Source: Mytilus trossulus
Lineage: Eukaryota
NCBI RefSeq assembly: GCF_036588685.1
Contig: NC_086380.1
Location: 63,612,001 to 63,676,000, forward strand
Length of the DNA stretch: 64,000 bases
Direction: 5' to 3'
Shown: one piece after another, positions 827 through 55,959 of the stretch
Numbering within the stretch: the first letter of the stretch is position 1
How the letters are laid out: each line of letters starts with the position of its first letter
The notes under the pieces: model-generated
What the model was told of the DNA's origin: nothing
What the model saw: only the letters and a program-made list of their open reading frames with translations
Databases searched by the model: none
Position numbers and translations under genes: made by a program

Positions 827-935
827 GCTATTGAGTTTTATGGAAATCCATGTTAATTTGAAAAAGTTATAAAACAAATTAAAGATGACTATCTGGATTT
901 AGCCTAAACTGAAAACTGAAAACTCTGATTCCTTT

Positions 936-1088
936 CACGGATACTTATTGGACCTTTTGGATTATAGCTCTTCATCTTTTATATAAGCTTTGGATTTCAA
1001 ATATTTTGGCCACGAGCATCACTGAAGAGACTTGTTAATTGTCGAAATGTGCATCTGGTGCAAGTAAATTGTTACCGTTAATTTTATT
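936..1088 (+). mobile_element. retrozyme-like interspersed repeat, family 2 (partial)
   Basis: Interrupts the tandem repeat; contains hammerhead; same sequence recurs at 34654-34696 and 30909-30945. Confidence 0.65.
1016..1061 (+). ncRNA. minimal type I hammerhead ribozyme (family 2)
   Basis: GCATCA-CTGAAGA-GAC[ttgttaatt]GTC-GAAA-TGTGCA-TC^TGGTGC: CUGANGA and GAAA cores, stem I GCAUCA/UGGUGC, stem II GAC/GUC, near-palindromic stem III, AUC cleavage triplet (cut after 1055). Confidence 0.8.
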
Positions 1089-2140
1089 AGCCTTTTTTCA
1101 ACCTTTCTATTAAATCCATCATTGTCTATAGAATGACAGCAAAACAACAAACTACCAAACAACCTGTTGTTCTGTAAGATCAATATATAAGTGAAATAAT
1201 TGTAGAATTTTATGAAAATGCCAGTTAATTTGAAAAAGTTTTGAAAAAAATTAAAGATGACTATTATACCTGGATTTAGCCAAAACTGAAAATTTTAGCT
1301 TTTTTTTTAACCTATTTAATAAATCCATATAGAATAACAGCAATTCAACACACTACCAAAGAACCACTGGTATTCTGTAAGATCAATATATAAATGAAAT
1401 AATTGTAGAGTTTTATTAAAATGCCAGTTGACTTGAAAAAGTTATGAAAAAATTAAAGATGACTATCTGGATTTAGCCAAAACTGAAAATTTTAGCTTTT
1501 TTTATAACCTGGATTTGGCCTAAACTGAAAATTATTGTTGAGACCTTGTCATTTATGTTTTTTGTGCCTGCAAAAGGATTTTCCTACACACCGATAATTT
1601 TTTTTACAATAAAATAAGTCCAAGCCCATCCACTATATATTTTTAAAAAAGTTCTCGCCCATCCAAATATTTCCACAAAAAAAGTGCTTGCCCTGCCCCA
1701 TTTTGCACCGGCCCATCCATCTGATAAATATTGAACGGTCCCTTATGATATGACCTTTCTAATTTTAATGCCACCTTAGAGAATTTCTCCTGTTTTCACC
1801 GAAAATATAGTGTGGATGGGGCATACAAGTACTATGGGCACATTCTGGTTGGAATTTAAAATATCCTGGATTTCTACCAAACTTTGACGTTAAAGTTTGT
1901 TTATGATCATAAAAGAGGGAAGAAAGATACCTGAGAGGGACAGTCAAACTCATAGATTGAAAACAAACTGACTACTCCATGGCACAAAATAAAAATAAAT
2001 AAAATAAGATAGTTATAATCCAGAAGTAAACTTTCCTGTATATATCTTATAAATGGACCAGTTTTTGTTCTGTTTAACAATATACATATAGTCTGCAGTT
2101 TAAGTTTTTTTAAACATTTATTAGATTAAAAAAAACATCC

Positions 2141-7538: not shown

Positions 7539-7624
7539 AAATTTTGAGTTTCTTCAGGAAAATAGTTCGAATATTAACAAATTTGTTAATATTCGAACTA
7601 TTTTCCTGAAGAAACTCAAAATTT
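7539..7624. repeat. perfect 86-bp palindrome with no spacer
   Basis: Every base pairs about the 7581/7582 axis; same peptide appears in both strands of the ORF track. Confidence 0.95.
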
Positions 7625-17832: not shown

Positions 17833-18099
17833 TTATACTAATAGTATAATAGTCCAGATAAAATTTATAATAAGAAAAAAGTAAAAGATTGATAATGAAA
17901 ATACGAATATTTATTTTACTACGTTATACAACCTTCCCTGCATTTATCTGAAAGGATTTTATTTCTCAACTTTATTTTCTATTCCTTGTATTTTTTATTT
18001 CTCGTTAACTTTATGACTTCCTATTTTTGAAAACAGTTGTTGAAGTGAATTCAGGAAAAAAAACAAAGATATACCATAAATAATTATTCCAACATCACA

Positions 18100-19620
18100 T
18101 GCGAAAAAGCATGTAATTAATCTATCAAAACGCAGATTATCAAATCAGGAATATATCCTAGCTGTTGGCGAAAGGCTTGAAATTTATACCAACGCAATCT
18201 AGCAAAAATGCAAAAATGTCTATACTAAAAGACTACAATGAATTTGCTAGAAAATTACGATGTCGGTATATGTTCAGTCAAGAAAAAAACTGACATTCAT
18301 ACATTTCGTAGCAATACATGATATAAACCTGCCTCTACTTGCCATACGTTAGAAAATTATATAGAGTTAACCAAGCTTGAATTGTCTTTTCTACCAATAG
18401 AAAGAATTGTAAAAAACAATCTTACCAAGGGCGAAAGAATAGCGCTACGCAATTTGAAAAATGATGAAACAATAGTTATAAAAAAGGCAGATAAAAATTC
18501 AAATTGTGTGATTTTAGACAAGCTAGACTACATAACAGAAGTCACAAGACCACTAAATACTCAACATTACTGCCATTAGATTCATTTAACATGGCAGAAC
18601 TGAAAATTCAAGTCATTGATAAATCATTATACGATCAAGGCATAATCGACAAAATATCATTTCGATTTTTAACAAATGGTCAAACATTAAGAGATGCACG
18701 ATTAGGGAGAATTTATATTCTTCCAAAATTCACCGCCTTGAATTAATTGAGACGTTTAAACAAATACAACATGATGGATTAAATGAATTAAATATAATTC
18801 CACCTGTCAGACCAATTATAACTCAGTGTGGTTCTGTAACTGAACTTATAGGTCATTACGTTGACTATTTTCTTATACCAATAGTTCAAAATCAGTCCAC
18901 ATATATAAAAGATACTACATCGTTCATTAATATCATTGAGAAATTAAACCTATGGCAAACAGTCTGTTAGTTTCGTATGATATAACACAGATGTTTACAA
19001 ATCGACCTCAAGAAGCATTATTGCGTGCGGTTGAACGAGCCTATGACAGTTTTGAAAAATCGAACTTCAAGGTCAATACTCCGCCAGTCAATGTATTAAG
19101 ACATTTGTTGAGAATCATTTTAGAAAACAATGTATTTGAATTTGATGGGAAAATTTACAAACAAATAATAGGTACGGCAATTGGTGCAATTCCTTCACCG
19201 GAAATCTGTGACATACTAATGTTTGAAATAATGAATCAAACTATTTCTGCATTTCAATATAATAAAAAGACAAAATATTCTATCATGCCAGATATAGAGA
19301 CGATGGATTCATAATATATAATGGAACATTAGATGAAATTATAGACTTTTTTCGTCTTGTAAATGATTATAACCCCTTATTAAAGTTCACCTATGAAATA
19401 AAAAAACGATAAAAAGTGTCGTTCTTAGATGTTGATGTTATTAAAGGTCAAAGATTTACAACATATGGCATTCTTGACCTCGAAATACATTTTAAAGAAA
19501 CAAATTCTTATCTGTTTCTGCACAGAAATAGCTGTCACTCACAGCATGTGTTCAGAGGATTTATTAAAGGTGAAGCAAGACGGCGAATTAGAAATACAAG
19601 TGACCATAACAAATTAATAA
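18100..19620 (+). pseudogene. Penelope-like element reverse transcriptase, multiply frameshifted, 3'-truncated
   Basis: VINLS, LAKGLKFIPT, NLTKGERIALRNLKNDETIVIKKADK, GRIYILPK, RPIITQCGS, YIKDTTSF, LVSYDITQMFTN, NVFEFDGKIYKQIIGTAIG, catalytic YHARYRDDGF (19281-19310), LKFTYE, SFLDV, thumb FKETNSYLFLHRNSCH; no GIY-YIG domain seen. Confidence 0.88.
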
Positions 19621-20053
19621 ACAATCAAACTAATTTCGGCTCAGGGGATATAAACTCTAAGCCGGGAATGTCTCAGTATATACCCTGTCTGAGACCTTAA
19701 TAATATATAATATATATAAACAGTAACATGAGTAAATCAAAATATTTAATGAATATAAGATAAGATAAGATAACTTTATTAGCACTAACACATTGACAAT
19801 AAATGGTTATGGCAACAAATTAAAGACTAACTACAATAACATATATACAATGAAGGAGTGACAGTGGATAATTATGAGAGAAATAATATAAAAAAATAAA
19901 CGGGAAGCATATACATTATTACAGAAATCAAGTACCTTTTAATAATGAGTTTCTCACCAACAAGCATTCATTCAAATAGTTGACGACAATTTTCAATATT
20001 GTTTGGGAATTACTATTTAGAATTGATATAAGCAAGTTATATGATAAGGAAGG

Positions 20054-20889
20054 AAAGGAGTAGGTCCAATAAAGACCGATTTTGGCCTCAAATTTCAGTT
20101 TCATCTGACGAAAGATTTTGACCACTTTTTAAACACTTAAGTCACGGTTTATTTCATATGATTCAATTAATTTATGTGAAAGATTTTAACTTAAAATAGT
20201 CATTAAAATCGATCTGATTCAAGCTCAAATATGAAAAATCTACCAAATATGCGAAAAAATGTAACTTTTTAGATGGTTTTTGTCAAAAACGAAAGTGGTC
20301 GCATCCGTGTTCATCCTCAATTTTTATATATGTTATGTATTATCATCAAATACAACTTCCATTTCAAAATTTTGGATGAACACGAATGCGGCCACTTTCG
20401 TTTTACACGGAAACCATCTAAAATTTAACTAAAATGCTGGAATTGTGAAGATTTCAGTAATTTAGCATGACTTATAGGTGCTAGTGCCCAATATATGTGC
20501 ATTGTATTGTCAAAAACAGCTCATATTTATGTAGCAGAACCTTGACACCATTTGCGATTATGGTCTTAAGGAAACGATGATAGTCCGTCGGAAGGGGACG
20601 ATAAATGGCTGACCCCTGTTAAGAGAGAGTCATATCTCTTGCACGTTAAAGACACCCTTGTAGATTTCGAAAAAGGGTAGGCTAATGCCGCTACAAGGCA
20701 GCACTCGCACCTGCAAAGTGGAGAGGGATTAATATAAGTTGCAAAACATGTTTCCCAATCCACTGTAAATAAATATGTTTAAACTAAAATTCTACTTTCC
20801 AATAAATAACTAAAAGTTTACATTTTAACAATTTTGTAAAACTGCTATATTTTGGGGCCGAACAGATGTCTTACTGGACCTACTCCTTT
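20054..20889. mobile_element. non-autonomous DNA transposon (MITE) with internal hairpin
   Basis: TIR AAAGGAGTAGGTCC / GGACCTACTCCTTT; internal inverted repeat GAAAGTGGTCGCATCCGTGTTCATCC / GGATGAACACGAATGCGGCCACTTTC; right half repeated at 32055-32432. Confidence 0.8.
20541..20788 (+). mobile_element. 5'-truncated SINE body with Deu/Nin/Meta-like conserved core
   Basis: GTCCGTCGGAAGGGGACGATAAATGG..CCCC..GCACGTTAAAGA core; AATAAA and TAAAC-type tail; absent from the paralogous MITE at ~32320-32340. Confidence 0.7.
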
Positions 20890-23006: not shown

Positions 23007-24336
23007 TTTAAATGACAAATTTAACGGTGATAAACTAGATTTAAACCTTTTAAATAACAAATTTAAACTGCTATTATTTTTCAAATAAATATCAAGTTTA
23101 ATAACCCATAAATCGGAATTAAACTTAAAAAAATAAGAAATTTAAAAAAATTATTAAATTTTCATAAACTACTAAAATAATTCTTCATAAATCAGACCTT
23201 AAATTCAAAACTAGAAATTTAATATATGAATAAATTTTGTAAACGTATCATTTCATGCAGTGTACATTGTAAAATAATGTAATACAAGTTTGTCAATCTA
23301 TCTAGTGTTAGTGTTACAAAATATTCCATTGTGTGCATCATTGTAACATATTAGTTTATTTTTGTTAGTGATTGGGATTGTAACACAATGTTGCCTGCTG
23401 TATTTTTGACAGTTTCTAACTATTATGTCTGTTTGTTTTGTTCACGCATTATTGTCAATATACTTGAATTTGATGCAACTGTCATACAAGTGAGAGTTTT
23501 AGATTGCTATAAAACCAGGTTTAATCCACCATTTTCTGCATCAGAAAATGCCTGTACCAAGTTAGGAGTATGACAGTTGTTATCCATTCGTTTGATGTGT
23601 TTCATCATTTAATTTTGTCATTTGATTCGGGACTTTCCGTTTTGAATGTTTCTGTAGTTCCGTATTTTTGTGATATAACTTTTCAACATAGTTAATCATA
23701 AAAAGACAGTAGAATAATAACTCATGTACGTTTAGAATTGAAATTCCCTAAAATGCTTTATTAGCCATGATGATTTTCTTCTCAATAGTAAAAAATACTA
23801 GCGTAACAAAATAGATAAATCAGTGCATATAAATAATAAGTTATTATTTAAGAGATGCACTAATACATTTGTTCTAGATGAAATGATGATTGTATTATGT
23901 TTTTACTTCTTTATTTTAATAACAATGGTCACAACATACACGACATTTCATCATATACTATATTGAAAAGAAAAGAAGAAAGATACGGCAGTAGGTATAT
24001 ATTTTTAACATGCAAGAAATTTGTAATAACATCTCAAGCCTAGTACGTATATATAGAAACGTCTTTGGCTTAATAATGATTCCTTATATATTTATATAAT
24101 TATATTTGAACAGGCACAAAACAAATGTAATGAGTAAAGCAAATTTTGAGTAGGTTCTAAAAACATTGTGCATTTACTTATTTTTGTTTTTTGGACATTT
24201 CTTGGACCAAATAGACATGCAATACTTATACTATAGATAATAAATAATGTTGTATTTTTTTCATATTAGTATATTTTTTTTTAATAAACCTATAAACAAA
24301 CGATTAATTTATATTTACTTTTTTCATTTGATTTGA

Positions 24337-29935: not shown

Positions 29936-31035
29936 TTGTTACAGTTTCAAGGTATTTTTATTTTTATTAAAGTAAGGACATATTACCCAATCATCATACT
30001 CGTTAGGAAACACCTTGAAACTGTAGCAACAGTGGATGTAGTCTCGGATGCGAACATAGACAATACTGGTAGTTTGAAAGCTGCTACAAGAACAAGAGCT
30101 ACATTGAGGGGAAAGAGAATACACAGAAAAATCCAGGGTAAAAAAATCCTCAAAATTGGCAAACTTGATGATGTTTCAAGTTTAGCACCATGTTTACACG
30201 AAGAGACTGATACTATAATCAAGATCGATGTGTCTGATGCAGTGAAACACAGACTTAACTGAGTCATGACTTGAACAGTCGATACTGATGTCATGGGGCA
30301 GAAAAACTTTTGTTTGCATTTGGAAGTGGAAAAAGCTTAAGATATATATCTATCCATGACTTTTCAAATTCACTAAACATTAAAAGATAACACGTTTGCT
30401 GAAAAGGAACTGTGTTAGTGACATAAATGGCGTTTGAAGATGTGACCTCAGCATTTAGAATGATGATTGATTAGCCAACATCACCAGATATGGATTTGAT
30501 AAATTAAATGTCATTGAAAACAATACGTGGTTTTGTTGTAAGATTGAAAAAAAAACTAATCAGATGGGGTTAACAAAGTAAGAAAACATGCGTTTAAATG
30601 ATGATATATCAGCCTAAATCACCGTTTTTTTTTTCTGTAAGATCGCACAAACTTATCAGATGGAGCTTATATGATTAACGATGAAAGAAAATAACTATTT
30701 GCACAAAAAGGAAGGCTAATTATAATTGAGGCTATTCCCTCAACTTGGTCTAATCTTTTCAAGCATGTAAAACGTGCAATATACTAATGCAGGTGTTAAG
30801 GGGACGAGCTTAGGAGTGGCTCTTATGCTACCCAGTCCAGGCACTAAAGGATGGCGAAGGGACAAAGAGGATCTCTTTTAATAAAAACTCTTTCTAAGGC
30901 CTCATCATGGCATCGGGTGCAAGAAAATTGGTACCGTTTATTTTATTTGTCAGAAGCTTGTACATTGTGGATGTAAGAAAGGATGCCGCGGTCATTGTTA
31001 ATGTGGAAAATCGGATCTCCCGTGCACTGCATTTT
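29936..31035 (+). pseudogene. Academ transposase C-terminal relic, right arm
   Basis: VDVVSD..SLKAATR..RGK, LAPCLHEETDT, TVDTDV, FAFGSGKSLRYISIH, KRAIY, HCGCKKGCRGHC*CGKSDLPCTA. Confidence 0.8.
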
Positions 31036-34653: not shown

Positions 34654-34696
34654 TTTTTGGCCACGAGCATCACTGAAGAGACATGTATTGTCGAAA
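34654..34696 (+). ncRNA. truncated family-2 hammerhead (stem I 5' strand to GAAA)
   Basis: TTTTGGCCACGAGCATCACTGAAGAGACATGTATTGTCGAAA, then an abrupt switch to an inverted family-1 copy. Confidence 0.7.
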
Positions 34697-34720
34697 AGGT
34701 ACCAGGATTATAATTTAGTA

Positions 34721-34763
34721 GGCCAGACGCGCATTTCGTCAACATAAGACTCATCAGTGACGC
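34721..34763 (-). ncRNA. minimal type I hammerhead ribozyme (family 1) in retrozyme fragment 34697-34812
   Basis: Reverse complement GCGTCA-CTGATGA-GTC[ttatgtt]GAC-GAAA-TGCGCG-TC^TGGC; intact core, GUC triplet. Confidence 0.85.
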
Positions 34764-36457
34764 TCATATCAAAATGTTAATTAAGCCAAACAAGTACAAA
34801 GTTAAAGAGCATGGCGGATAAACATTTCAGCCTTAATGTAACTCTATTGTATTACATGACCTCTTTGGATCTGCCTCTGAAATGCAGGCCAAAAGCCTAT
34901 AATCCATTGATTATTTTTGTTATTACTGCTGTCTATATCAAAAAGAAGATGTGGTGTGATTGCCAATGAGACAGATGTTCATAATACCAAACGACACAGA
35001 AATGAACAACTATATGTCACCGCATGGCCTTCAGCTGCATAGACAGCTATAAAAGTCCCGTTAAACAATGCAAACAAGGAAACTAACGGCCTAATGTCTG
35101 AACAAAATAATGAACGAAAAACAAATATGTCACCAACGAATTACACGCTCCTTGCTTTAGGACAGGCACATACAGAATGTGGCAGGGTTCAACATGTTAG
35201 TGGGCACCCAACTAGTCCCTAGCCTGGGACAGTGATGTAATCGTAGATAATGTCGTATTTAAATTCTATCAAATTGAAAATCGCACGCGTGTATCCGTAC
35301 CAATTAACACTTTCCTATAGATAATGATGTTTTTTAACATCTGCAAAATACCTCCGAGAGTGTTTCAATAATATAACGCATATTATAGCTTGCTGTCTGC
35401 ATGTTATTGTGGTATATATATATTTTTTTTAAACATGATCATTGATTAAAACCATATCAAAGCATAATTTAATACATGAATAACTCATTGACAAATACAA
35501 TATTGTGTCAACGAAGCGTACAGTATAAAAAGGTGTGATAATAACGAAGCGTACGCACCATGAAAATAAAGACATTTTAAAATGTGTCAATTTTTGTTTC
35601 TAGATACCACATAAACCTTCGATTTTCATAAGTTTGTTAATTTCTACTATGATTTTTTTTGCAAATGTATGTTTAAAAACTATGAGGCACGAGAAACATT
35701 AAGTTTCGGATATTTAAAAATACCAAGCATGCTTTTGTAATCGATATTTCCGTGCGTTTTTTTTTTTTATTTTTTGTCTATAAAAATGTCACAAATTAGA
35801 AAATCGTTGTATTAAGTAATGAGTACTATGGCAAAGAATATATTAGGGCTAAATACCCGGAGAATATATACTGGATTTTCTTTAACAGTATCAATTCTTC
35901 ACTGTCTGAACTCATTGGTACACGGTGTGTTCGATTCAAACGAGTCATCTTCCGGATTCATCTGTATCGGGGTTATACGGGGTGTGATATGAAAATTCTA
36001 CTGTGGAATTCTTAATGAGCACATAACACTCCGCATAATTGTAAAACGCTTTAAAACAATTTAAAAGTCTTGAGACAAGGATTTGACCAGACCAGACACA
36101 GTTTTATACACATTTTTTTTAAATTTCCGAGCGATGTTAGTAATTCTCTTTTTGTACAATCTTTGCTACATAGCGAACTCAAACTAACGTATATGTTTAT
36201 CAGTTTACGTCACTAGGTATAAATTAAGGCACATGACTATTCTATAGCGGGAAATATTTTTTCGAAAATAATAAAAGAAAAAAAAAGAGCAGACAGAGAA
36301 ATCAAAGAAACAACACACAGGAAAATCATCATACTCGAGAGAAAAGGCAAATACTACCTATTCTTTTCAAAAATTTGGCAGTTTTGATTGTGGAAGAAGA
36401 GGCTACTGGACCGAATATTGTCAGGGAAACACTGAAAATACTTATGGAGTTACCTCT

Positions 36458-37938: not shown

Positions 37939-38365
37939 CGAGGTGTTATATGACCAACTGGTGTGAGATGTTCTTCGGTTAAATTATATCTTATCTTATC
38001 TTATAGACGATAAAACCGTAAAAGACCAGGACAAATACAGATATTCATAGATTCAGAATGAGAAAAACAGCATCCCATTTTAATTTGTTCGCCATTATTT
38101 GGCTTCTTAACAAGTAACTTGGTATAGAACATTTTGCATAAAAAGGGTGTAAATAATTAAACAAAATTAAAAAAAAAAAAAAACAATATTATTGGCCTTG
38201 TTTTTTGTAGGAATACCTGTTCAAGGTATGAAATAGATGACGTGACGTATTTTCATGTACTATAATTAGCATTTATCGGGCTATTTAAAATATGATTTAC
38301 CTATCTTATCGAATGAAAAGAATTTACGGGAAAATGGCTCTACCTATTCCATGTTAACAAAACTT

Positions 38366-38578
38366 TGAATTTTTCAAAGAACTAAGGATTTTCTTATCCC
38401 AGACATATATTACCTCAGTCGTATTTGGCACAACAGTTTGGAATGTTTCTTAATGCTCATCACTTTTGTACGTGTTTGGTTTTATACATATTTTGATATG
38501 AGCGTCGCTGATGAGTCTGATGTAGACGAAACGCGCTTCCGGCATACTTAAGTATAATCCAGGTACTTTTGATAACAT
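38366..38578 (+). mobile_element. retrozyme-like repeat, family 1, with hammerhead at 38502-38545
   Basis: GCGTCG-CTGATGA-GTC[tgatgta]GAC-GAAA-CGCGCT-TC^CGGCAT; collinear with the inverted copy at 34697-34812; stem III carries one mismatch. Confidence 0.8.
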
Positions 38579-50799: not shown

Positions 50800-53760
50800 A
50801 CACGTATATCTATATTTCGACGGTTTATATCTTAAAATGGAGTAGTTGCATGGATCACGTTTTGTATAAAACAGCATATACCTGTAGTTCGTTCATACTT
50901 TAGAGATCTCTGACGGAGAGATTTTTCTTACACTTTTAAAATCTTTTTGCAGTAACCTTTGTTGAAATAGTTTTTTGTCTAAATCACCAACTATTTTTAA
51001 TTATTTATGCATTTTAACTATCTACTGAGGATGTCAAGAAGACGAATACAACATGTAACATGAAAAACAAATATTCTGTTTGATTTTAAAGTATGTATTT
51101 TAAATCATTTATATTTTAACATATTTCAGATTAAATAATTTCTATAATCTGTTTTAACATCTGAAAAGTATTTTATAAAATTATTTCTAAATTAGCCGTT
51201 AACTTGTAACATAACTTGTAACATATTAAAATTTCACACTTCAACTACATGTCTCGGTTTTTAAACATCATTGTCTTTGCTTTGGCCATTCCTGGTGTAG
51301 ATAAATCTAGAGAAGCAGTTGATTTGAAAAGTTTACTTTGCATTGTAATTAAATAATACAACAATAGTATAGCAACAACGCAAATATATGACGTGAATGA
51401 GTCCGCGATCGAAGGAGATATTGTTTCATTAATTCTAAATTTGTATTCATCAAATAATAAAGTGAAACGGTCTTCATCTTAAAGATTAAGATTGGATGAC
51501 AAAAATAGCGTGTAACCTCATAAAAAGAATGTTTTTATTAAGTAATCTTATACTCTTTTTACGTTTCAAAATATCCAGATGGGATGACAAAAATAGCGTG
51601 TAAACTCCGACAAAGAATGTATTTTATTAAGTAATGTTATACTCTTTTTACGTTTTAGAATATCCAGATGGGATGACAAAAGTAGCGTGCAAACTCCGAC
51701 AAAGAATGTATTTTATTAAGTAATGTTATACTCTTTAAAAAGTTTTGTATGAAAATCAAGACTCTTTAACGACTTTGACATGCTATTTATTTTATATAGT
51801 ATATCATTATGTCGGGGAATAAAATTTGAATTATGACTATGAAAAGTGTCATGGTTTAAGATTATTCATTCAAAAAGGTAACCCGAAAATAAAAAAAAAT
51901 ACAAGTATACCAAGTCACACCTGTTTAAGGGATTTTTTTATGATGACTAAGTTAAGAGACAATATTAAAAACGTATGAAAAATTACCGAAAACTAGCGCA
52001 CAGTATTGTTTTATAGATGTTTAAATCTTACATTAAAAAGATATGTGTGATTGCCAATGAGAAAACTATCCACAAAATTTAATATTGTATAAATGGCTAT
52101 ATAAGGCCCTAACATGAAAAATATAAAACAATGAAAGTTAAAAAAATAACGGCACAATGAATAACAAATCAACACACGAAACACGATAATATATGACACA
52201 CCAATGACAACCACTGTGCCATACTTGCTCTTGAATTTGGACAGGCACAAACCGAATGTGATAAGGTAACCCCTGTTTGTGAGAGCTCAACCATACACGA
52301 TTAAACAAATAATAGCTCTAAATAAAACCGAGAACGGGTGCATCGGCAAAGTCATATTAGATTCAACAGTATAAAAAAAAACTGAGTGTTATACTTTAAA
52401 AAAAAGCATTGATAACGTCGAAACAATAAATTCATTGGTTAAATTGCTCGTCAAAATAATATTAATTGGAAATAATGTAGTTTACAAATATTAATTTACT
52501 ATTTTAATGCTGTTGATGAGAAAGTTACAATTTGTAGAAATTCGAATAAATAAATTGTATGCTAGAGATTCGGTGTTAACATATTGATAGATATATATTA
52601 ATTGATTGAGTAATAAATATTTAATTGACTGGCAGTGCGTGTAACTATACAATGGCGTATACAACTTTCCGTACTAGGAGGGATCCATAGACCTTCTGTG
52701 GGAATATTGACCATTTGAATGTATAAGCTCAGTTATACTCGACTAATGAAACAGTAGTTGTACAATCAAGAACACTGAGGCTCCATCTGCTCATATTCAA
52801 ATCAATGGCCATAGCTTCTATTACTTTTTAGCTACAATATGTGTATTTGGTTTTGCAAACCAACAGTTAGTTTTACATAATAAAGTGAATTATAACGGTT
52901 TGTGTTTTTGTTCAAAAGTTAAACATCAGGTATTGGAACATGTTTGTATGAGTCCTTTAACCTGTGTAATAAAAGATACTGTTATAGAACAAATATTTAC
53001 TTCTAAGAATAATAATTAGTGAAAAATTGCACACAAAGCTGTCTCCATCTTCTGAAATGAAAGTCATGAATTTGATGCAATTTGAAGCCATCTTGATTTT
53101 ATGTAATAACTAATAATGAGCATTATTGATTTAGCATTTGTTTTTTCGAAGTACATGATTGTACTTCCTACTGAGCTAGACGAACAAAGGGACTGACATC
53201 TACCTCAGTACCACAATACATTACAAATCAGACGATTTCTATTTCGAAATTATCAATTTCCGCAACCTTAGTAGCAATATACGGTTCATATTCCAGGACA
53301 TGCAGCCGCTAAGCATAATTTATAAAATGACGGCAACAGTATATTTTCGTCATCAAACCCTTATTATCAATTTGAGATACAAGTATGAAACAGAAATTAT
53401 AACTTAATTTAGATTTCAAATCTCAAGGAAAAGTCAAAGATTATGCTATTTCATAAGTCACTGTATGTCATATGGCTCCACAAATGTTTGTGTTTCTTAT
53501 ATATCCATGGTTTTACATGCAATTCATGACTAGATAGTTTCATTTTTTCTAAATAGATCAGTTACTAAGTATAACATGTATTGGCTTGATGTGTTTTTGT
53601 TTTTAATTTTATCATTTGAGAAAAAGTGAAAATAACACAAATACTAAACTCAGAGGAAAAGTCATAGTCCGAAATCAGATATAAAAGGTCAAACACTTCA
53701 AATCTATGGAAAACCGTCTTATAACTGACTTGGTACAGGCATTTTGCATGTAGAAAATAA
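50800..53760 (+). repeat. segmental repeat copy C
   Basis: Collinear with A and B. Confidence 0.85.
51495..51735. repeat. ~88-bp tandem triplication inside copy C
   Basis: GGATGACAAAA(A/G)TAGCGTG at ~51494, 51582 and 51671; single in copies A and B. Confidence 0.9.
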
Positions 53761-55959
53761 TGGAATATGACGGTTCTTGAGCATTCGTTTTGTTATGTGT
53801 TTTGTTATCTGATTTTGCCATGTGCTTATTGACTTTCCGAATTGATTTTCCTCCAAGTTCAGTATTTTTGTGATTTTACTTCTGACTCACTGTAAAAGTT
53901 CTTTTATTGATGGGGAATCAATTTTTCTTGGTTTTCGTGGATGACTTTATTTACAAATTTAAGTGTCTGACGATATATAACAATTTTTGTCCAAATCAAG
54001 ACATGGAATGGAAAAATCCGCATGTAGTTTTGACTACCGATATGATCTAGAGAATACATTGAATATCGGCAAATCTGAGACTATTATAACGAAGTCTTAG
54101 GGCAAAAGCACTCTACATATAGCTATGAACTACAACTGCATGCAGGATTATACGCATGCAGTCTTTAAGACTTAAACTGAACAATTGTTGATCTGTTAAT
54201 CTACATAAGTTAACATTTTTGATCGATAAAAGTCAGATTTCCGGTGATTATCGGCTATGTTCAAGTGTTAATTTCATTTCCTGATAATTCTTGTACAGTA
54301 AAAAAAAATCATGCTGGGCTTGATTTTGATTTTACAATTCAATCATTTATAGCGTTTGATTATGTTCCTGTTTTCTGTAAGTGACATGATTATGATCCAA
54401 TTAATATCTGGTGGTCTTTAATCTGTTCATCACTCGATCGCGGGTTAGTTAGTGTCATCACAAAGCTTTTAACAGGTGCAACAATTTAATTGTTTACATT
54501 GCAATATCATTCAATCTAGACCATTTGTAATCTTCGTTTCTAACGGCTTCAATTCTTTACTCTATCAATAAGAAAACTGAATCCACAAATTCAAAACTCC
54601 ACGAACATGTTACTTTTGCCCAAACCACGAATTTGATACCAACGAATAAAAGTACTTTCACAGTATTAATATCTTTTGTTATGTTCATTTTCATCTGTTC
54701 ACTGGAGGCCTTATCGTATACAGTGTTTCATCATTTTAATCTAATTTTACACGTGAGTGCTGAAAAAGTCATCTGTATCTTGGTGTCTTTGGCACACTAT
54801 ATAGGGTTTAAACAAGGCAGTCAAGATTGTAACGTACATATAGCAAAACTTGGAATTTTTAATAAACATTGCATCTAATTCCCTCGTGTTTTATAAATTT
54901 TTTGTAGATAGAATCCTTAACGTTAAAACTTTTCTATCAACTTATAACGCAATGGATAAAAAAGAAAAAGACAAACAGACTAATGATAGTACACAAGACA
55001 CAGCATAGAAATCTAAAGACTTAACAACACGTGCCCCACCAAACACTGGGGTGATCTCAGGAGCTTTTTGTTGTTTTTGTTATTACAAACAATGTAAATA
55101 GTCTAATTCGGTAGGTCATATGCGTGTGAAGGGAACAGGATTTTCGTTTCGACGTAAGGAATATATACGATATCATCCGTGAACCGTATATTCCATGATG
55201 GTCAACTAAGAAGTGATGGCGTCCTTTTAATTGTTACGAAGGAATGATTTCAACTTCACTATTTATTTTGTAATATTTTGTATTTCGTGAGTTAATACGC
55301 TTACACATTGGTTCATTACTATTGTCAGCATAATTTAAATTACTGGATTTGTCATCAGTACGGTGTCCAAAATTATAGATAATTCTCCCTCATCTTATTT
55401 ATCCCGGACTCCAAATTGTGTTTAGCCGTACACGTTGCAATTTTTTCCAAATGCACAACTGTTGCTCTATTTGAAACAGGGTTGTCGCTTGTTAACTCTG
55501 TCCTATTGTCAGTATGATGAATATCATCCTTGTAGTATATATTCCAATTCATTTGTGAGGGCCAACGATTTTGGTTAACTTTTATGCCTTTCTCTCTGGT
55601 GGCGTTAGATCATGTAAAATTTATACAATTACCGCAGTCCAACTATGACACAATCGCACTACGATCTGTAAATAAATGAAAATTTTGACGATTGTGTAGG
55701 TCACAGCAAGGTCGTGGTGAGATCTCCATGATTGTTATGAGCGCAGCCAACATTGAACATGTTCAAAATAACTGAAATGCAGTCGTGGTAAAATCAGGAC
55801 GCGAAGATATATATTAAAGCATGAATTGAAATTTTACACTTCAATTCTCGGTATATATACATCAATGTCTATACATATTTGGCTTTTGACGTCCCTGATA
55901 AAGATAAACACAGAGAAGCGCTTGAAAACCATTCGTTTGATGTGTTATATGAGTTGGAA

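Follow-up and report, generated by a model that had tools for sequence, protein, structure and literature searches.

Three hammerhead ribozyme motifs lie in a stretch of 64,000 nucleotides of the Mytilus trossulus genome (the window), and they raise the question of which reverse transcriptase (RT) copies the retrozymes of animals and how a circular RNA gets primed. For Mytilus galloprovincialis, about 5,000 hammerheads of two families were described in 350-390-bp tandem repeats that are transcribed and give rise to abundant circular RNA, and Penelope-like elements (PLEs) were proposed as helper of the retrozymes (Cervera and de la Pena 2020, PMC7229834). In the available text of that article neither a particular helper nor a fixed 3' end nor a conserved hairpin is mentioned.

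Hammerhead copies in the window

A descriptor scan of the window returned exactly three hammerheads (Table 1), compared with a mean of 0.015 (maximum 1) in 200 dinucleotide shuffles; none of the same 200 shuffles gave a match with a palindromic stem III. The layout that a preliminary description had given for 1016-1061 (GCATCA / CTGAAGA / GAC..GTC / GAAA / TGTGCA / TC / TGGTGC) was found as claimed, and the motifs of a second family were present at 34763-34720 (minus strand) and 38502-38545. All three are the cut-short, partly decayed 3' ends of two published-type Mytilus non-LTR retrozyme families, here called family 1 and family 2. They are single, 5'-truncated, partial monomers, each with one or two broken pairs. 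In the hammerhead at 1016, loop II has a 2-nt insertion, the fourth pair of stem II is broken, loop III is a GUGC variant and the palindrome is weakened (duplex -6.0 vs -10.5 kcal/mol); pair 5 of stem I is broken in both the 34.7-kb and the 38.5-kb copy, and in the 34.7-kb copy pair 4 of stem II is broken as well. The copies are without the shared hairpin described below and without a second ribozyme, and the region surrounding them is duplicated on two other contigs. It is unlikely that they make monomers or circles, and they are probably dead ends.

The family-2 copy at 919-1089 sits inside a short local repeat (833-1530), the sister units of which allow the empty site to be read, and at both of its junctions there is short microhomology, with no target duplication that stands out. 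Target-site duplications could be sought in two window copies only, with a longest shared word of 4 nt, and these are too few to conclude from. The 42-nt family-2 fragment lying tail to tail with the 34.7-kb copy may stem from insertion into an older copy with a deletion, or from two-strand priming; a similar layout, with a hammerhead fragment against the fixed 3' end of another copy, was also seen in L236 (394-705). Long inverted repeats at 7541-7622 and 20268-20419 of the window had weak scores against several miRNA models, far below the gathering scores, and are probably transposon ends or palindromes.

Table 1. Retrozyme, hammerhead and Naiad features of the window; signed numbers are counted from the predicted cut.
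Position	Strand	Feature	Details
919..1089	+	Family-2 retrozyme copy, 5'-truncated	Monomer -142..+34; 90.5% to young array unit
1016..1061	+	Type I hammerhead, family 2 (CUGAAGA, AUC)	Predicted cut 1055/1056
1056..1089	+	34-nt segment from predicted cut to fixed 3' end of family-2 insertions	
23437..23683	+	Naiad copy, 3' end	85% to intact Naiad family; stops 2 nt short of where the shared hairpin would lie
30910..30947	+	Family-2 end-only fragment (-4..+33)	Stops at the same fixed 3' end
34655..34696	+	Family-2 hammerhead fragment, 42 nt (-49..-8)	Opposite orientation; abuts 3' end of family-1 copy
34695..34819	-	Family-1 retrozyme copy, 5'-truncated	-93..+31; 92.8% to young array unit
34720..34763	-	Type I hammerhead, family 1 (CUGAUGA, GUC)	Predicted cut 34726/34725
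38346..38576	+	Older family-1 copy, 5'-truncated	-196..+37; 86% to young array unit
38502..38545	+	Type I hammerhead, family 1, decayed	Site UUC; mismatch C.U at 15.2-16.2; G-C pair private to this copy
near 53621-53887		Other Naiad ends	

Retrozyme families across the genome

The genome-wide search that had been suggested for these motifs was carried out on 1.3 Gb (541 contigs), and a generic core pattern had 27,492 exact matches (reversed control, 0). At least four families were found, and both figures exceed those for M. galloprovincialis, with about 5,000 hammerheads obtained from a different assembly and by a different method (PMC7229834); the two systems share the type I hammerhead in tandem repeats, two ribozyme families and copies in the thousands. 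Tandem arrays, which had likewise been proposed as a check, were found for family 2 (period 350, 37% GC; 4.7, 8.1 and 19.1 units) and for family 1 (period 353-355). They have the hallmarks of non-LTR retrozymes, in which each unit of a ~170-400-bp tandem repeat bears a single type I hammerhead and the GC content stays below 45%. The homology upstream of the hammerheads that had been noticed between both families is real and spans the whole monomer (blastn 69.6% over 322 columns, E 2e-25), and the monomers are collinear. Inspection by eye, rather than a formal ORF analysis, revealed no reading frame common to families 1 and 2, and the whole family-2 monomer folds no better than shuffles (z -0.67).

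Two further families bring the coexisting retrozyme lineages tied to Penelope-like elements, several of which had been postulated, to more than two. Family 4 is family-1-like and about 368 nt long. Family 3 is a (TA)n-flanked repeat of 551-577 nt (573 nt) that is otherwise unrelated to family 2; their sole clear similarity is the hammerhead (89% over 36 nt), which suggests an exchange of ribozyme modules. The CUGAAGA core has 10,550 matches in the genome, a count that takes in family 3. In family 3 (L174 1488-8098 and other C1 loci), loop III is CCGG or CUAG, the site is AUA or AUC, and copies end near +372.

Other repeats were seen alongside. A 29-nt hammerhead piece has been tandemly amplified locally in L182 (1603-1690), as has a 131-nt unit containing the Naiad-type hairpin core described below (G000:C12:27544287-27545100). 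A (TA)n-flanked tandem repeat of ~442 nt with a tRNA-like segment occurs in L100, L174 (8100-9471), L179, L192 and L193. Other repeat-like type I hammerheads, whose loop III is palindromic (AGCT, TAGT-type), were seen in metagenome contigs L257, L260, L261, L264, L265, L272, L275 and L277-L279; they probably belong to other eukaryotes.

Fixed 3' ends of retrozyme copies

Copies of families 1 and 2 end 31-48 nt past the predicted cut, just before a 64-nt element, and their 5' ends are scattered. Among query-selected loci, 29 of 30 family-2 copies end at +33..+40 and 37 of 40 family-1 copies, some family-4 copies included, at +31..+48; this count excludes six overlapping loci, fragments shorter than 60 nt and ends that coincide with a locus edge, and it retains some duplicated loci. 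Sixty arbitrary 10-kb tiles contained 37 copies of families 1, 2 and 4, of which 22 have their end at +33..+51 (binomial p 5e-19), the upper bound of this range having been widened after family 4 was seen. By family, these are 13 of 17 (family 1), two of three (family 2) and seven of 17 (family 4); the 15 that end elsewhere are mostly old family-4 copies. Two family-3 copies end at +372 and +374, and the 5' ends in the tiles form a mild cluster (8/37 in the best 19-nt window). In public reads and contigs, loose ends with mixed flanks pile up at +34 for family 2 and at +37..+41 for family 1, each in four of four runs.

Neither poly(A) nor a common terminator was found at the copy ends, and family 1 is without a T4 there. 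Arrays start at arbitrary phases, yet they finish at the same phase as solo copies. The copies run through the cut site, and therefore the template would have been joined there and copying would have begun internally.

A 64-nt element shared with a Naiad family

Directly after the fixed end lies a GC-rich element of 64 nt, at +35..+98 in family 2 and +43..+106 in family 1. It is the most conserved part of the monomer between both families (58/64 columns, 91%), compared with 29/39 (74%) for the hammerhead and 109/196 (56%) for the body. A UUCG-capped hairpin downstream of it shows paired changes between families 1 and 2. The element of arrays L032, L187 and L048 had no match in Rfam at E up to 10. 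A search for divergent homologues in metagenomes yielded 27 loci, six being mussel-type copies and only one having the element, and no new covariation. The preliminary description contained neither the fixed 3' end nor this hairpin, which lies outside the truncated window copies.

A homologous element, with a 22-nt inserted hairpin, stands directly before the first ATG of an intact PLE family (L094). Its unit of 4,277 nt has an intact ORF of 1056 aa with an N-terminal GIY-YIG domain before the RT, CxC, DKA and a lengthened C-x-CxxC motif, and this combination, including a size within 3.4-4.4 kb, places it in the Naiad clade. No CUGANGA..GAAA core, and hence no canonical hammerhead, was found on the sense strand of the unit. 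The N-terminal GIY-YIG, CxC, DKA and the lengthened Zn-finger motif of mussels agree with the account of the clade by Craig et al. (2021, PMC8557442), as do the 4.3-kb unit, the lack of a canonical hammerhead and the 5' truncation; a start hairpin or retrozyme partner is not described in the available text of that article. Unlike the description there, Naiad ends here are mostly in AT-rich DNA that is not (TA)n, as seen in the 3' flanks in the tiles and the window, and the frequent (TA)n insertion of the clade was not observed. This does not exclude membership, because (TA)n insertion is said there to occur 'often'.

The pattern of the Naiad element (5-base spacer) has 53 matches in the genome, and in 24 of 30 loci fetched a GIY-YIG ORF follows; the other six comprise two retrozyme variants and four loci without a motif match. 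Naiad copies in the tiles and the window end at the same place as the retrozymes: 28 of 38 at -10..+3 of the element start and none of the 38 beyond +3, with family-2 ends at -1..+1 and family-1 ends mostly at -3..-1 on that scale.

In the predicted nested hairpin, all 12 counted pairs hold in five of five sequences, with three double and three single changes, a count that rests on two lineages (retrozyme and Naiad), so that the double changes may be few events; 170 of 500 shuffles had at least as many doubly changed pairs. A pseudoknot fold of the element was rejected, because the helix it would need contains a mismatch plus two G.U pairs in Naiad, none of them compensated, and the nested hairpin keeps all pairs. 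Retrozymes and Naiad resemble each other in sequence over a short stretch (blastn, 33-34 nt with E 1e-4 to 0.015; nhmmer E about 0.007), and the same hairpin could alternatively derive from shared promoter ancestry.

Because both the ends and the hairpin are shared, the Naiad enzyme probably binds and primes on retrozyme RNA and copies both families, starting just 5' of the shared predicted hairpin. No published link between Naiad and retrozymes was found in the literature searched, a search from which most subscription papers and Repbase were absent. The PLE diversity covered here amounts to 149 GIY-YIG matches of 615 candidates. As another possible partner, (TA)n-targeting PLEs with a C-terminal GIY-YIG (50 loci) were considered and discarded, with no monomer similarity beyond inserted retrozyme copies.

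RT-only Penelope-like families

The first candidates for a partner were endonuclease-less PLEs, which have the same layout as the retrozymes but do not share the element; they are retained as a rival. One such RT-only family, a young one, has a decayed piece in the window (18096-19637, plus strand) and intact units in L289 and L293-L312. It encodes a single ORF of ~650 aa without GIY-YIG, carries its own type I hammerhead and has a fixed 3' end at +56. Its 2,564-nt units form head-to-tail arrays at 99.5-100% identity on many contigs, and its targets are AT-rich, non-TA and non-telomeric. Many full-length RT-only relatives (~645 aa) list no GIY-YIG domain, and several are named from bivalves.

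That another Penelope-like enzyme of this kind, endonuclease-less and hammerhead-bearing for instance, copies the retrozymes, with the hairpin as an internal promoter or an ancestral remnant, is unlikely. The common layout speaks for it, and about ten related families are present in the genome; part of the element also resembles the consensus of a Pol III B box. However, Pol III would be expected to terminate at several T4-T6 runs in the monomers, the element was absent from the RT-only families by nhmmer and blastn (one tail match is an antisense insert in the UTR of one family), and these families are without an endonuclease. Naiad and retrozyme ends lie in the same register relative to the element.

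Some side observations concern the UTRs of these elements. In the 3' UTRs of RT-only PLEs in L321, L323, L324, L325 and L330, type III-like hammerheads with a long loop closing stem I appear by eye, and they seem to have complementary bases between loops 1 and 2, which is unusual for animal PLEs. The UTRs of multi-copy PLE families contain end fragments of family 1, which travel along with these families (L321 9544-9584, L326, L322; L111 4054-4081), antisense in one RT-only family and sense in a Naiad subfamily.

Transcription and the nature of the template

Transcription was followed in one raw RNA run (X24) of one study, chosen by its species label because none of the runs listed for these sequences was recorded as RNA; about 6% of it was read (8.7 million reads). 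On family 2, 2,116 reads were found, 302 of them across the unit junction, and on family 1 there were 6,407 with several hundred across the junction, some reads coming from sister families on shared parts. First mates were 2-7 times commoner on the minus strand; assuming the usual library convention, we infer that array RNA is mostly hammerhead-strand. In this run of fragmented RNA, read starts or ends did not pile up at the predicted cut of either family. The junction reads fit circles and linear array transcripts alike.

An alternative to internal priming on a joined template is a linear RNA with its 3' end at +34/+40 that inserts singly like a SINE, the arrays growing later by unequal crossing-over. 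A fixed 3' end with 5' truncation is indeed the usual SINE/LINE pattern, local amplification was proposed for the arrays of vertebrate retrozymes (10.64898/2026.07.22.740005), and ribozyme cleavage was dispensable for insertion in the Poseidon assay (PMC11167929). Against this stand the arrays, which begin at any phase but finish where solo copies do, and the copy ends without poly(A), common terminator or, in family 1, T4. Read ends do not pile up at +34 or +40, the loose ends at these positions being genomic junctions with mixed flanks, and circles are the main RNA form in Mytilus (PMC7229834). A linear template seems distinctly improbable, and internal initiation by the Naiad enzyme is preferred.

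Hammerhead class and the standing of family 2

Eight hand-picked sequences, the three window copies and five family types, were aligned. The core (CUGANGA, GAAA and UH with G10.1-C11.1) is invariant in all eight except for N7 and H17. Position 7 of the hammerhead core is variable, and an AUC site is permitted under the NUH rule; for these reasons CUGAAGA/AUC is an ordinary core and not an unusual one. In Rfam (RF00163), the 38.5-kb copy alone was reported among the window copies, with 34 bits, equal to the gathering score, and typical family 1 reaches 33 bits; family-2 and family-3 hammerheads were not reported at E up to 10. This miss and the 10,550 CUGAAGA matches would suit family 2 being a distinct, little-known lineage with an unusual core and active ribozymes in the window, but this is very improbable, given that the variable position 7 is the sole difference, the body is collinear with family 1, two families are already published (PMC7229834), and the window copies are solitary motifs in which pairs are broken, the palindrome at 1016 being weakened besides. 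The suggestion that the CUGAAGA/AUC family is less characterised probably does not apply, for two Mytilus ribozyme families are in print (PMC7229834), and both families flagged in the window are known in kind and probably in fact.

In the same alignment, both partners differ in six of the 12 pairs, and pairing is kept in 94.8% of cells, vs 83.9% in shuffles; this control takes no account of relatedness, and few actual events underlie the changes. Three of the double changes are in stem I (one of them a private swap of the 38.5-kb copy), two in stem II and one in stem III. The covariation of all three stems that had been described stands in that stems I, II and III change in pairs between the families. 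Stem II is not a flipped 3-bp stem: family-typical copies have 4 bp with two swapped pairs, the fourth pair being the one that the 1016 and 34.7-kb copies break. The GUC assigned to the 38.5-kb copy proved to be UUC, with a C.U mismatch at 15.2-16.2. The swap from A-U to G-C at the base of stem I in that copy is private to it and no trait of a lineage; the G is present in 183 family-1 cores and the C in 171, and of the 171, the first 100 listed include no core with both other than the 38.5-kb copy. A double change by chance is plausible, because this copy is 86% identical to a young unit.

With a helix I of 6 bp, a helix II of 4 bp and a helix III of 1-2 bp with a palindromic loop, the motifs have the geometry of canonical metazoan type I hammerheads. 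The long helix II (7-8 bp) and short helix I of PLE min-HHRs were not seen, nor was the unpaired base that these have between 9 and 10.1, and the label 'minimal' in the preliminary description is wrong by the definition of PMC4209133. The min-HHRs treated there resemble the mussel motifs in type I topology, in the palindromic 15.2-16.2 and loop 3 and in the dimer model, and they differ by a long helix II, a short helix I and an extra unpaired base from the canonical 6-bp helix I, 4-bp helix II and 2-bp helix III of the mussel. Stem III is self-complementary in four different octamer forms with a predicted duplex energy of -7 to -13 kcal/mol, and the 2-bp stem III hairpin is predicted to be unstable (+2.4 to +4.8 kcal/mol). 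These calculated energies fit the dimer model of PMC4209133. A strict need for dimers is doubtful because one cloned genomic repeat was reported to cleave at ~0.1 per min (PMC7229834).

Proposed mechanism and comparison with known systems

In the mechanism envisaged, transcription would run through the unit junctions of the arrays and yield mostly RNA of the hammerhead strand, in which hammerheads would cut once per unit, probably aided by pairing of the palindromic stems III of two units. The monomers would then be ligated to circles, the formation of which is published for Mytilus (PMC7229834). The Naiad protein would bind the hairpin in the element, its GIY-YIG domain would nick AT-rich DNA, and cDNA would be primed 0-3 nt upstream of the hairpin. 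Copying would proceed back through the cut site, needing a joined template (circular or uncut multimer), and would halt at a variable point, leaving either short ends such as those in the window or arrays of several units.

The closest precedent for the internal start is the Poseidon PLE of Anolis (PAc), for which RT initiation in vitro was internal, downstream of the hammerhead cut and near the ORF start (Frangieh et al. 2024, PMC11167929). Genomic ends match start sites and targets are AT-rich there as well; however, PAc is autonomous, belongs to another clade and starts inside the ORF in an AC-rich stem loop, and the available account of the assay includes no non-autonomous partner or circular template. 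Vertebrate non-LTR retrozymes are likewise non-autonomous riders of PLEs (Li et al. 2026, 10.64898/2026.07.22.740005), but they derive from the hammerhead-bearing pLTR of their PLE, whereas the likely helper in the mussel is without a canonical hammerhead, and what it has in common with the retrozymes is limited to a short hairpin.

It is an even question whether, more broadly, the retrozymes of mussels are RNA circles made by hammerheads and live as parasites of a Naiad that itself is without a hammerhead, by means of a borrowed 64-nt hairpin, which would dock a telomerase-related RT and set an internal start, ribozyme and docking hairpin being separable modules. The case for modules draws on family 2, which combines a family-1 body with a hammerhead shared with the unrelated 573-nt, (TA)n-targeting family. 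A docking hairpin with an internal start would, if true, explain how an RNA without a 3' end is copied into tandem arrays. For the wider questions of enzyme and priming, the hairpin shared with an intact Naiad and the same register of ends name an enzyme, an RNA site and a start position that could be tested in an existing in vitro assay and, if true, would represent a portable signal for reverse transcription of circular RNA.
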